This document shows, piece after piece, positions 7,010-10,819 of a DNA stretch of 23,978 nucleotides; the first letter of the stretch is position 1; each line of letters opens with the position of its first letter. The notes beneath the pieces were generated by a model. That model was not told where the DNA came from, did not search any database, and saw only the letters and a program-made list of their open reading frames with translations. Both the position numbers and the translations under genes were made by a program. Source of the DNA: a virus (Duplodnaviria > Heunggongvirae > Uroviricota > Caudoviricetes); the IMG/VR virus record IMGVR_UViG_2600254997_000020, positions 1 through 23,978 of that record, one strand, 5' to 3'.

Positions 7010-7085
7010 TGGTAATCCTTAACAAGTGACTAGTGTTAAATTTCCGTTCAAACACGATGCGAATTATTCTAATTAAGGTGCAATC
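7010..7085. promoter_or_regulatory. Divergent intergenic control region between darB-like and prt-like genes, containing the TAACAAGTGA motif
   Basis: 76-bp gap between divergent start codons. The 10-mer TAACAAGTGA (7020-7029), followed by ACTAGT, is repeated exactly at 10751-10760 on the opposite strand. Confidence 0.4.
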
Positions 7086-8795
7086 TTGGCAGACAATAAA
7101 ATCACGCTATCCTCGGTCAGGAAGGCGCTGGCGGGGGTTTTTAAAGACAACGGAGAACGGGACAACATCCTCCTGTCCGCGCTGGCTGTGCACGGCGGAA
7201 GTGGGTATTTGTTTTCTCGCGCAGGGGCACCGGTACAACTGTCCGGCTTCTTAGGCGGCAAACCGGGCGATAGTGGCATGGCTGGTGATGGGCTGGTGGA
7301 TGGGAGTCGCTTTATCTTTGATGAAGTTCAACTGCCGGAAGACCGCTTGCAACGCTATCCGCTACTCGAAGAAATGGCGGTTTACAGCACGATCGCCACC
7401 GCTCTGAACATCCATATTACGCACGCGCTCTCTTTCGATAAGAAGACCGGACAAACCTTCTCTATCGTGCCGGTACACAACGGAAACGATAGTGACTATG
7501 ACGCCGCGCAGGGGTTGTGTGACGAGCTGATGAACGACATCGGGCGAACCATCAACAAAGAGGTCGCCGGGTGGGCATTTATCATGTCTGTATTTGGGGT
7601 GGCTTATGTCAGGCCATACGCCAAAGAAGGCATAGGGATCACGTCTTTTGAGTGCTCCTATTACACCCTTCCGGGCTTCATCAAAGAGTTCGAGGTCAGC
7701 GGTAACCTGGCGGGATTTAGCGGCGATTATCTGAAGGACGCGTCAGGGAAAATGGTTTTCGCCGATCCGTGGGCCATTATCCCTATGAAAATCCCCTACT
7801 GGCGGCCTAAGTCAAACCTTATGCCTGTGCACACTGGCCATAAAGCATACAGCTTGCTGGATAATCCGGAAGAGCGCACGCCGATTGAAACCCAGAATTA
7901 CGGGACCAGCTTGCTCGAATACGCCTACGAGCCGTACATGAATCTGCGTTCGGCGATCCGCTCACTGAAGGCAACGCGTTTTAATGCGTCGAAAATTGAC
8001 CGAATCATCGGCCTGGCGATGAATAGTCTGGATCCGGTAAAAGCAGCCGATTATTCGCGCACCATTACTCAGACGCTTAAACGAGCAGCTGACCTGATGG
8101 AAAAGCGCGCACGCGGCGCGAATAACATGCCTACGGTGACCAATACCCTGCTGCCTATTATGGGCGACGGCAAGGGACAGATGACTATTGATACTCAGAC
8201 CATCCAGGCTGACATCAACGGCATTGAAGACATTCTCACCTATATGCGCCAGCTGGCGGCAGCACTTGGCCTCGATTACACCCTCCTGGGGTGGGCAGAT
8301 CAAATGTCCGGCGGGCTTGGTGAAGGTGGATTCCTGCGCACGGCAATTCAGGCCGCCATGCGCGCCTCATGGATCCAGCAGGGCGTAGAAGAGTTCATTC
8401 AGCGGGCTATCGATATTCATCTTGCTTTCAAGTACGGCAAGGTATACCCGGAAGGTGATCGCCCGTACAAAATCGAATTCCACTCCGTTAATACCGCTCT
8501 GCAACAAGAGCACAACGAAAACCGCGACTCGCAGGCGAACTACGCCACCATCGTTACGCAAATCCTCGATGCCGTCAGCAATAACAGCGTCCTCGCCAAT
8601 TCCGATGCATTCAAACGTTACCTGTTCAGCGATGTGCTGGAGATTGACGAAAAAATCTCTGAAGCACTGGTGAACGAACTGAAAGCGAAAAGCGAGGACG
8701 ACGATCACCTGATGGATTCCATCATCAAAACACCGCCACAGGAACTGGCGCAAATCCTTGAATCGGTCTTTAAAGAGGGAAACGAGAATGACTGA
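7086..8795 (+). CDS. prt: Prt-like putative portal protein
   Basis: 569-aa ORF with TTG start at 7086 preceded by AAGGTG. Call rests on position (darB-prt-pro-lyz-ssb order as in P1); no motif recognised by eye. Confidence 0.55.
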
Positions 8796-9807
8796 TGTTT
8801 TGAAAACGGTCACTGACCGCTTTTGTCTCTATAGTAATGCTAGAAAAGGTCGCCAGAACGGGCGACAGTATGTATTAAGCGCGGTAAAGACCATGCTTGA
8901 AAGCAAGGAAACTCAGGAAGGTTTACGCCTTGGTGAGCTTTTCGGCTATTACGGTCACGGTCGCCGACAGCTGACCGGCAAACTGGAAGTACCAGAAACC
9001 AGCGTGATCATGGTGGAAGGTCGCCCGGTCGTTATCGACAATGTTCCAGCTTGCCGCACAGTAGCTATATCCGTTGACGACAACGGCATCGTTACCCATA
9101 CACAGGAAATTCTTAACACAGAGCCGGGTAAAATTGTCGCCGCGATGATCGAAAGCCGAGCTGGTGGCTGGAGCTGGGCCACTGGCGGGCGTGAGTCCGG
9201 GAAAATCGCTGTAACCACCAGCTTCCATGGTGTGGATTATGTGACAACGCCGAACTATATCAGTCTGGATCATCCTGCCAGCGCCGGAATGTTTGAAAGC
9301 GCGGATTCTAAATCTTTACTGGCAGAGTCCCTGGCGGCGCATGGGTACTCCGACGAGTCAGTGCAGGCCGTTATATCCCATTACGGCAAAATGGCTGAAC
9401 TGGAAATGATGGTGGAGGCGACAGAGCGTACGGCAGAACTGGAAACTGCACTACTCGAAAGCCAGGGCCGCCACCTCGAAGCAATGGCCAAGATCGCAGA
9501 TGCTGAAGCGCGAATCGCTTTGCTGGAGGAAACAGCGGGTATCCGCGACGATGTGCTGGCAGCAATGCAAGACGAACTGGATAACCTCCCGATCTTCGTC
9601 TCCGCCGCCCAAAAAGACGCATTCCGCCTCAAAGAACCTGGTGATGCAAAAATCGTTGCCACACTTTTCGAATCTCTGATCAAAGTTGGCGCACGCAACT
9701 TGCCTGTCACCAAGAAAATTAAGGAGGTTCCGCAAGCGGCTAACGTCCAGGCACCGCGTGAGACAAGCATCATCACGTTTAATAATTCAATCAATCCGTT
9801 TAAATAA
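8788..9807 (+). CDS. pro: Pro-like prohead protease/scaffold protein
   Basis: Start chosen at ATG 8788 (GAGGGA upstream), overlapping the prt stop in ATGACTGA. C-terminal third is coiled-coil-like ([45 protein letters not shown]). Call by synteny. Confidence 0.55.
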
Positions 9808-9812
9808 CCACC

Positions 9813-9846
9813 AAAAATAACCCCGGCAGCTGCCGGGGTTCTCGTT
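9813..9846. terminator. Bidirectional rho-independent terminator between convergent pro and lyz transcripts
   Basis: Perfect 18-bp palindrome CCCCGGCAGCTGCCGGGG (9821-9838), flanked by AAAAATAA upstream and TTCTCGTT downstream. The minus-strand reading has the better U-tract (TTATTTTTGG). Confidence 0.6.
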
Positions 9847-9851
9847 AACTA

Positions 9852-10100
9852 TTATCGCCTTCGTGCCATATATTTGCGCACCGCGCGGCGTGGACAATCT
9901 GAAGCGGTTTCTTTCTGCTGCATCAATCTCGCAGCCATGCTCAAAAATGTCAGGCACAGCCGAAGCCCGGCATACAATAGCGGTTCCAGTGGCCACGTCT
10001 CATTGAGCACATATACCGCCATGAAAATCGAGTCAAAAACTATCGCCGCCAGCGATAACTTCATTGTCGAAAGTCGGCGGAGCTGCCGGAGTTTATTCAT
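9852..10100 (-). CDS. Hypothetical small two-helix membrane protein, translationally coupled to lyz
   Basis: ATG at 10098-10100 overlaps the lyz stop (ATGAATAA). Two hydrophobic stretches (LSLAAIVFDSIFMAVYVL, LLYAGLRLCLTFLSMAARL). Followed by the terminator at 9821-9838. Weak RBS. Confidence 0.3.
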   Translation of the reverse strand: MNKLRQLRRLSTMKLSLAAIVFDSIFMAVYVLNETWPLEPLLYAGLRLCLTFLSMAARLMQQKETASDCPRRAVRKYMARRR

Positions 10101-10650
10101 TGACAAGCCCCGTCAGGCAAAGCTGGCGTTCTTTTTCACGGCGAATCTTTAAACCTCGCAGGGGCACGCCGTTACTGTTCACGAAATCAGGGAGATGGTT
10201 ACACATATTCACCCATTCCCCTTTCTGCGCCCACTTGTGGATGGACGTTTCTACTCGCATGCCTCGCGCTTTGCTGTAGTAGGTCCGTAAGCTATTGCAT
10301 CCCATATTGAATGCCGCGCTTGTCATTGCACTGAAGGCATTATCGGGCATGTCTTTGCCCCGGAAGTGCTGATTAATACAGCGTTCAGCGATCAGGATAT
10401 TCTTTTCCCAATCAGCGGCGATTTGCTGGTCGGTTTTTCGCACACCCGGCGTTACCCCGTGTGTATTACCGATCCCGTCAGTCCATACCCCCGCCGGGCA
10501 CATGTATGGATCACGTCGGCAACCTTCAGCGTTACCAATCAGCTCAAGCCCCGCCTGGTTGGTTCGCACATTGCCATTACCCATCACGATGGTAATCATC
10601 ACCGCGATAGCGCAAATTGCACCGCCTCCTGCGGCTGTTTTTCCCTTCAT
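10093..10650 (-). CDS. lyz: SAR (signal-arrest-release) endolysin, P1 Lyz-like lysozyme
   Basis: Start taken at internal ATG (10650) giving MKGKTAAGGGAICAIAVMITIVMGNGNV..., a Gly/Ala-rich SAR N-terminus, followed by a lysozyme-like catalytic region (LELIGNAEGCRRDPYMCPAGVWTDGIGNTHGV). The track ORF begins 33 codons upstream. Confidence 0.9.
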   Translation of the reverse strand: MKGKTAAGGGAICAIAVMITIVMGNGNVRTNQAGLELIGNAEGCRRDPYMCPAGVWTDGIGNTHGVTPGVRKTDQQIAADWEKNILIAERCINQHFRGKDMPDNAFSAMTSAAFNMGCNSLRTYYSKARGMRVETSIHKWAQKGEWVNMCNHLPDFVNSNGVPLRGLKIRREKERQLCLTGLVNE

Positions 10651-10819
10651 AAAGACCTCATAAGCGAATTTTTTACGCTCCAGGACAAACACCCATTCAC
10701 AGCCAATACCGACTGACTCGATCCCTTTAGAAGGCACAGGATAATGCAAATCACTTGTTAGCTACGTTTCAAAGATATACATTATTGCTCTAATTAATTT
10801 ATTTTATTAGGTAAGATAA

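Follow-up and report, generated by a model that had tools for sequence, protein, structure and literature searches.

The stretch of DNA analysed here (the window, 23,978 nt) is a P1-type phage contig, 98–99% identical to P1, in which one divergent region separates darB from prt and another separates lyz from ssb. An exact-match search finds two copies of the 10-mer TAACAAGTGA in the window, one in each of these regions and on opposite strands (Table 1), at exactly the positions and in the orientations that the initial annotation had reported, and the distances to start codons given there are likewise correct. The first copy (site 1) lies 56 nt from the TTG start of prt (7086) and 11 nt upstream of the darB ATG (7009), adjoining the darB Shine–Dalgarno sequence. 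The second copy (site 2) lies 59 nt from the ssb GTG (10820) and 100 nt from the lyz ATG (10650). The window is a complete draft contig ending in IS10 copies, and its IS10–darB junction has no equal in plasmid or E. coli genome collections.

Table 1. Promoter features at the two 10-mer sites and elsewhere in the window
Feature	Position	Strand	Elements and basis
10-mer copy 1	7020..7029	+	Exact match; overlaps annotated -22 region of LPpro
LPpro, late promoter facing prt-pro	7022..7042	+	AC + box AAGTGACTA (7024-7032) + 4 nt + TAAATT (7037-7042)
PdarB, predicted sigma-70 promoter	7063..7092	-	Pattern scan, CTGCCA-18-AATAAT; region where the P1 record puts a predicted PdarB
LPlyz, late promoter facing lyz-lydD/lydE	10738..10758	-	AC + box AAGTGATTT (10756-10748) + 4 nt + TATCCT (10743-10738)
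10-mer copy 2	10751..10760	-	Exact match; overlaps annotated -22 region of LPlyz
P2ssb early promoter + C1 operator Ossb, overlapping LPlyz box	10755..10800	+	-35 TTGTTA (10755-10760), 17-nt spacer, -10 TACATT (10778-10783), Ossb ATTGCTCTAATTAATTT (10784-10800); P1 annotation via alignment
LPdar, late promoter of the lydA-lydB-hdf-darA-ddrA-ddrB operon	22222..22240	-	Box AAGTTACTT + 4 nt + TACCAT

Taken alone, the repeat is not significant, since repeated 10-mers are common by chance and the exact identity between the two sites stops at 10 nt. Repeated 10-mers of any sequence number 1854 words in the window (~603 in random sequences), and ~5 are expected by chance within its intergenic DNA alone (~1.7 kb); the expectation of 0 for TAACAAGTGA concerns that particular word and not repeated 10-mers in general. 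The P1 genome carries a third copy at 4746, within the res gene, and the nearby sequence viewed shows no obvious -10 at the correct spacing downstream of it. The repeat gains its significance from a fit, established independently, to the pattern of P1 late promoters.

The P1 late-promoter consensus was rebuilt from the GenBank features of AF234172, where all 11 annotated late promoters align to nAC-AAGTGACTT-N4-TAnnAT. The architecture they share is a conserved AC, a 9-bp imperfect inverted repeat (AAGTnACTT), 4 nt and a -10 element, TAnnnT. Both copies fall on known promoters: 19 nt at site 1 are identical to P1 17251-17269, annotated as 'late promoter LPpro', and 19 nt at site 2 are identical to P1 20969-20987, annotated as 'late promoter LPlyz', each with a '-22 region' and a -10. 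Both boxes are one mismatch from a perfect palindrome. This alignment places the 10-mer over the left portion of the Lpa box in the late promoters of the portal gene (LPpro) and the lysozyme gene (LPlyz), and it consists of a 4-nt upstream flank, TAAC, and the left 6 nt of the '-22' inverted repeat. The earlier proposal that the motif is a regulator site, possibly for the late-gene activator, is borne out at its core, both copies falling on an annotated '-22 region', but it fails for the 10-mer as a functional unit, of which only the AC of the flank is conserved and which covers 6/9 box positions, missing the right half of the palindrome.

Pattern scans give the same picture. With up to one mismatch allowed, AAGTNACTT-N4-TANNNT occurs three times in the window against 0.26 expected, and the enrichment of the consensus extends to the whole P1 genome (12 matches against ~1.2 expected). 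The limit was set at one mismatch, two being too loose: the window then gave 5 matches where 4.8 were expected, and the halves of P1 gave 20 and 22 where 12.3 and 11.9 were expected. A matrix trained on seven other P1 late promoters, and so without either site, placed LPpro (22.2 bits) and LPlyz (17.4 bits) second and third among the scores of the window; in random windows the maximum score had a mean of 12.7 bits and a 95th percentile of 16.9. Annotation of late promoters in P1 may itself have relied partly on the motif, so that its agreement with the window is not fully independent; the leave-out matrix and the scan of Cronobacter phage JK004 described below lessen this concern.

Both promoters lie upstream of, and point toward, late genes, prt (portal) and lyz (Phage_lysozyme). 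A correctly spaced -10 of the TANNNT type is present at LPpro on the prt side only and at LPlyz on the lyz side only (TATCCT), and the hexamers in the opposite orientation at the two boxes, AGGATT and GCTACG, are not -10 hexamers. A simple sigma-70 consensus pattern scan found no promoter with a -35 near the boxes toward prt or lyz. Transcription would start at about 7049 for LPpro, leaving a leader of ~37 nt to the prt start, and at about 10731 for LPlyz, with a leader of ~80 nt to the lyz ATG; the box centre would then be ~21–22 nt from the start at both sites. The similar spacing to start codons (56 and 59 nt), to which the initial annotation had attached weight, is a coincidence, because the -10 of site 2 is present on the lyz side only and its promoter faces away from ssb. 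The relevant spacing is the 4 nt from box to -10. Site 2 was accordingly rejected as a late-promoter element of ssb, the gene driven being lyz. On the other side of site 1, a transcript from the predicted PdarB would run leftward across the LPpro box into darB, and site 1 would lie within the darB leader if that promoter is real.

The two sites are also conserved beyond this contig. P1 and P7 are 98–99% identical to the window at both, and among P1-like variants box and -10 do not vary, the sole change being one spacer base upstream of lyz: LPpro is conserved in 30 distinct upstream variants as well as in a divergent clade, and the box and -10 of LPlyz are invariant in 28/28 upstream variants, with the single spacer change in one of them. 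The clade, whose Prt is ~82% identical, keeps the motif amid diverged flanks, as TCACAAGTGACCAGTGTTAAATT before prt and TAACAAGTGATTTGGAGTACGAT before lyz. LPlyz is similarly retained amid diverged flanks in L165–L169 and in JK004, the lyz-side -10, 4 nt past the box, being conserved as TATCCT/TACGAT. The JK004 record carries no promoter features, and its Lpa is 67% identical. With the P1 matrix, JK004 yields 11 matches scoring 12 bits or more (1.5 expected), and 11/11 lie in the non-coding 10% of the genome, each followed on its own strand by a gene 13–147 nt downstream. In phage D6, with Lpa 31% and Prt 50% identical, the 17.6 kb examined yielded no convincing P1-type box (best 12.6 bits), which suggests a different specificity there. 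Conservation of the box follows that of Lpa, as in JK004, where both are kept. Identity with annotated promoters, motif architecture, direction, conservation and genome-wide restriction to the gene-upstream side together make it very probable that each 10-mer represents the upstream half of an activator box, one belonging to LPpro and the other to LPlyz.

The third late promoter of the window, LPdar, is identical to P1 31212-31230 and has a perfect box (0 mismatches to the consensus), yet it lacks the 10-mer. A fourth candidate occupies 21910-21932 (-), within lydA and before lydB; P1 has the identical sequence but no annotation there. The candidate scores 15.7–16.3 bits, at the edge of the random range, and the corresponding part of JK004 has no matrix match of at least 12 bits; given this score and the missing counterpart, it is probably a chance match and was rejected as a late promoter.

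Published work assigns the '-22 region' of P1 late promoters to Lpa as its binding site (PMC10695390; PMC3152322), and the boxes in the window correspond to that site of P1 Lpa (gp10, Pfam PF25716 BPP1_LPA), which acts with SspA. PMC1891329, with reference to Hansen et al. 2003, describes Lpa as binding DNA sequence-specifically and as thought to work via SspA, which itself is apparently not a DNA binder at late promoters. Transcription of lyz is described as depending on activation by Lpa (PMC8198154). In the mechanism published for P1, Lpa, made early from a C1-repressed promoter, would bind the 9-bp box and, together with the host RNA-polymerase-associated SspA, would let sigma-70 holoenzyme start at late promoters that are otherwise inactive. 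LPpro would drive the portal and head-processing genes prt-pro rightward and LPlyz would drive lyz and the small lysis genes beyond it leftward, with the outcome that morphogenesis and lysis genes are turned on late in infection. We infer the dependence of this particular element on Lpa and SspA by analogy with P1: lpa is absent from the 23,978-bp contig, and in P1 it lies ~60–70 kb away.

Other explanations of the repeat were weighed against this reading. An accidental match between two 10-mers that share no function would accord with the ~600 repeated 10-mers expected in the window (~5 in its intergenic DNA), with an identity that ends at 10 nt, and with the P1 copy inside res (4746), which has no obvious correctly spaced -10 in the context viewed. 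Against this, both copies coincide with annotated late promoters that have equal spacing from box to -10, a matrix trained in their absence gives them high scores, and they are conserved where their flanks diverge, while JK004 confines the same architecture to intergenic DNA upstream of genes. The leave-out matrix, the scan at up to one mismatch and the JK004 scan effectively refute a chance repeat, which we regard as extremely unlikely. It is also hardly probable that the motif is an operator for a different regulator of the phage (the C1 repressor, for example) or an RNA element in the darB and lyz leaders; this explanation we consider close to negligible, even though C1 operators share these intergenic regions and site 1 adjoins the Shine–Dalgarno sequence within the predicted 5' leader of darB. 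The annotated operator ATTGCTCTAATTAATTT differs in sequence and is separate from site 2, and the 10-mer is unlike the 17-bp operator type ATTGCTCTAATAAATTT, so that a C1 operator was rejected. As for RNA, site 2 is upstream of the putative lyz start and hence outside the lyz mRNA, and a common role is implausible because the two copies are in opposite transcript senses relative to darB and lyz.

A further possibility is that site 2 matters mainly as the -35 of P2ssb (TTGTTA), that is, as an ssb element instead of a late-promoter element. The P1 record annotates 20986-20991, equivalent to window 10755-10760, as the -35 of this early, C1-controlled sigma-70 promoter, the hexamer being the reverse complement of TAACAA in the site 2 10-mer, and L165 and JK004 preserve the layout (-35, 17-nt spacing, -10, C1 operator) despite a changed spacer sequence. 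Such an element would account for 6/10 bases at one of the two sites; it leaves unexplained AAGTGA, the lyz-side TATCCT/TACGAT 4 nt past the box, and the AC that precedes the box at 9/11 P1 late promoters and 11/17 JK004 matches. As an exclusive account we judge it very unlikely. The ssb and late-promoter readings are compatible, and the sequence of site 2 is probably read on both strands.

The overlap of the Lpa box with the -35 of P2ssb, an arrangement conserved in diverged relatives, leads to the proposal that Lpa binding between lyz and ssb could activate lyz and, by the same event, reduce early ssb transcription. The Lpa element may, in addition, lack symmetry and extend beyond the 9-bp palindrome that is annotated. 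The JK004 matches with AC 5' of the box were obtained with a matrix excluding the flank and include the top six; the 3' side shows no comparable conservation. This 5' asymmetry might help to set promoter direction. Taken jointly, the single-step switch and the asymmetric element are speculative, and we hold them to be doubtful; both go beyond the GenBank annotation and may already have been described.

Positive control of late genes, at promoters poorly used by host polymerase, is known from Mu (C), T4 (gp55/gp33/gp45) and P1 (PMC3152322; PMC10695390). Mu C binds from -30 to -55, whereas the P1 box is at -22, between a would-be -35 and the -10; T4 replaces the sigma factor and employs a sliding clamp, whereas the P1 box needs the host factor SspA. 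The P1 Lpa/SspA system has been cited as precedent for virulence gene activation by Francisella MglA-SspA-PigR (PMC1891329). The likeness lies in a DNA-binding activator thought to act via a polymerase-bound SspA-family protein; the DNA element and the activator are unrelated and reside on a bacterial chromosome, not in a phage, so that the Francisella system is no family member.

Both sites are already known: GenBank annotates them to the base among the 11 late promoters of P1. What the result offers is validation, an unaided reading of raw sequence having found a real regulatory element and guessed its class correctly. For annotation of P1-like phage-plasmids, ACAAGTGACTT-N4-TAnnnT provides a reliable marker of late-operon starts that carries over to relatives such as JK004. 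The window and P1 agree in the neighbours of the two promoters (darB/prt and lyz/ssb), in their orientation and in the flanking elements PdarB, P2ssb and Ossb. They differ by a few substitutions in the lyz leader and by one extra T in the window just past the -10 of LPpro (TAAATTTCC against TAAATTCC in P1), a natural polymorphism common to many P1-like contigs.

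Both copies of TAACAAGTGA in the window, one in the darB/prt region (site 1, 7020–7029, plus strand) and one between lyz and ssb (site 2, 10751–10760, minus strand), belong to a feature that is already known and annotated in bacteriophage P1. The two sites and their surroundings are 98–99% identical to P1, P7 and other Punavirus genomes, the P1 homology of the window being confined to 1332–22706, and the 19-nt cores at 7024–7042 (+) and 10756–10738 (−) are identical to the P1 late promoters LPpro and LPlyz, respectively. It follows from this identity that the 10-mer consists of a 4-nt upstream flank, TAAC, and the left 6 nt of the 9-bp '-22' inverted repeat (the box) of P1 late promoters. 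Extraction and alignment of all 11 annotated P1 late promoters (LPmat, LPpro, LPlyz, LPdar, LPs, LPsit, LP23, LP26, LPpmgL, LPhot and LPpac) gave nAC-AAGTGACTT-N4-TAnnAT, AAGTnACTT being a perfect 9-bp palindrome, and both sites fit this pattern. The proposal of the initial annotation that the repeat is a site for the late-gene activator is borne out by the coincidence of both copies with LPpro and LPlyz. Directly 3' of the LPpro -10, the window carries an extra T at 7043 (TAAATTTCC versus TAAATTCC in P1), which is common to many IMG/VR P1-like contigs and is therefore a natural polymorphism of the discriminator region rather than an error.

Annotated features at the two sites and in the segment that differs from P1
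Feature	Coordinates	Strand	Elements	Source
Late promoter LPpro	P1 AF234172 17251–17269		'-22 region' AAGTGACTA; -10 TAAATT	curated annotation
Late promoter LPlyz	P1 AF234172 20969–20987	other strand	-22 region AAGTGATTT; -10 TATCCT	curated annotation
P2ssb, early sigma-70 promoter	window 10755–10760 (-35)	+	-35 TTGTTA; 17-nt spacer; -10 TACATT	P1 annotation
C1 operator Ossb	window 10784–10800		after P2ssb -10	P1 annotation
Tn5/IS50-like transposase	window 11620–12747	minus	Tnp_DNA_bind + DDE_Tnp_1	
dGTPase-like HD-domain protein	window 13017–14471		HD + HD_assoc	

The exact repeat was recovered as first described, together with its distances of 56 nt to the prt TTG start (7086), 59 nt to the ssb GTG start (10820) and 100 nt to the lyz ATG (10650). 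The repeat is real but by itself would not be significant. An expectation of zero copies applies to that one word, and the fair measure is repeats of any 10-mer, of which the window holds 1854 versus ∼603 in composition-matched random sequences, with ∼5 expected by chance within its ∼1.7 kb of intergenic DNA; identity between the two copies stops at 10 nt. P1 (L003) contains a third exact copy at 4746–4755 (+), inside res and on the strand opposite to it, in a region absent from the window. The printed context of this copy has no obvious correctly spaced -10, and it illustrates that the 10-mer alone is no marker of a late promoter.

A weight matrix trained on seven other P1 late promoters, with sites 1 and 2 left out, ranked site 1 (22.2 bits) and site 2 (17.4 bits) second and third in the window behind LPdar (22222–22244, 24.1 bits), which was in the training set; the best scores in random windows had a mean of 12.7 bits and a 95th percentile of 16.9. 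With at most one mismatch, AAGTNACTT-N4-TANNNT matched the window exactly three times (0.26 expected), at its three late promoters, and P1 12 times (∼1.2 expected), seven of these being annotated late promoters and an eighth falling on the LPhot box. Allowing two mismatches made the pattern too permissive to be informative. At 21910–21932 (−), within lydA and upstream of lydB, AAACGAGTGAATATCGATAGCAT resembles a late promoter (15.7–16.3 bits; one mismatch to ACAAGTGA-N7-TANNNT) and is unchanged in P1 at 30900, where it carries no annotation. This likeness is probably due to chance, since the corresponding region of Cronobacter phage JK004 has no matrix match of at least 12 bits and the score is borderline against random sequences.

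A TANNNT at the correct distance is present on a single side of each box, directing site 1 to prt, site 2 to lyz and LPdar to lydA. Site 2 therefore drives lyz and not ssb; that it lies about as far from the ssb start as site 1 does from that of prt is coincidental, and the initial annotation was wrong on these two details. A simple sigma-70 scan found no promoter with a -35 in the prt-, lyz- or lydA-directed orientations, and recovered the leftward PdarB, a promoter predicted in P1. Judging from the -10 positions, transcription would start near 7049 and 10731. A passage in PMC1891329, citing Hansen et al. 2003, reports that the P1 late-gene activator Lpa binds DNA in a sequence-specific manner and is believed to work via direct contact with the RNA-polymerase-associated SspA; according to PMC8198154, transcription of lyz depends on activation by Lpa. 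A dedicated Pfam family, PF25716, exists for Lpa; the lpa gene is not on this 23,978-bp contig. The -35 of P2ssb is the reverse complement of TAACAA, and the P2ssb layout with its 17-nt spacing is kept, around a different spacer sequence, in JK004 and its relative L165; the site 2 sequence is therefore probably read on both strands. That Lpa binding might hinder the early ssb promoter is speculation.

Among P1-like phages, the 30 distinct prt upstream sequences at 78 IMG/VR Prt loci have substitutions around the core TAACAAGTGACTAGTGTTAAAT and none inside it, and upstream of lyz (80 loci) the box and -10 are constant in all 28 distinct sequences, one of which has one spacer change. A stronger test is provided by a distant clade (L165–L169 and JK004; Prt ∼82% identical), in which the intergenic DNA is heavily diverged and the late-promoter elements are retained as TCACAAGTGACCAGTGTTA[A/C]ATT upstream of prt and TAACAAGTGATTTGGAGTACGAT upstream of lyz (CAACAAGCGATTTGGGATACGAT in JK004). 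The 10-mer is not kept there, TAAC having become TCAC or CAAC; AC, the box and a -10 are. A second box-like sequence of this clade, TCACAAGTGATCTG(T/C)TTTACGAT (L165 15189–15211 (+); JK004 (L245) 13217–13239 (+)), overlaps the lyz start codon region, points to ssb and forms an inverted pair with the LPlyz box ∼85 nt away. Neither the window nor P1 has an equivalent, and the sequence could serve ssb as a late promoter specific to this clade.

The JK004 record is without promoter features and served as an independent genome for the genome-wide scan proposed earlier as a check; its Lpa is 67% identical to that of P1. The P1 matrix gave 11 matches of at least 12 bits (1.5 expected), all 11 in non-coding DNA (10% of the genome) and each followed at 13–147 nt by a gene on the same strand. 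The probability of 11/11 intergenic matches by chance is ∼1e-11, a figure that makes the case look slightly stronger than it is, because the -10 part of the matrix is AT-rich and to some extent favours intergenic DNA. When the 4-nt flank was omitted from a second matrix, AC directly preceded the box in 11 of 17 matches, including the top six, which indicates that the 10-mer included two genuine bases of the element lying outside the annotated 9-bp box; the six matches without AC are lower-scoring, and gene positions were mapped for part of them. Upstream of the JK004 lydA homologue (90988–91080 of the record), where P1 has LPdar, no late promoter of the P1 type was detected at 12 bits or more. 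The darB–prt intergenic region of JK004 has a C1-operator-like ATTGCTCTAATAAATCT (L245 ∼7855–7871) upstream of the darB homologue, absent from the window. In phage D6 (Prt 50% and Lpa 31% identical), the 17.6 kb examined contained no convincing P1-type box, which fits the activator and box changing together.

The window is the entire draft contig ALNX01000038.1 (assembly GCA_000754045.1), so its ends probably just lie in a repeat. IS10 copies, annotated in plasmids as 'IS4-like element ISVsa5', occupy both ends (9–1343 and 22704–23978) in inverted orientation, are 98–100% identical over ∼1276 nt and face the P1 segment with their inside ends (CTGAGAGAT...). They truncate darB at its 3' end (ORF of 1902 aa versus 2255 aa for P1) and cin at its start. 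Their transposase frames are split differently (left, 138+269 aa; right, 123+159+138 aa), pointing to frameshifts or errors in assembly. Searches of the plasmid and E. coli collections gave no record with the IS10–darB junction; a DarB truncated in the same way is present in a second assembly, GCA_002461505.1. The segment 11306–15255 also differs from P1, which has isaA, IS1 and isaB there. Its dGTPase-like protein resembles the 'deoxyguanosinetriphosphate triphosphohydrolase-like protein' of phage vB_EcoM-673R5, and dGTPase-like genes of phage-plasmids can be defence cargo.
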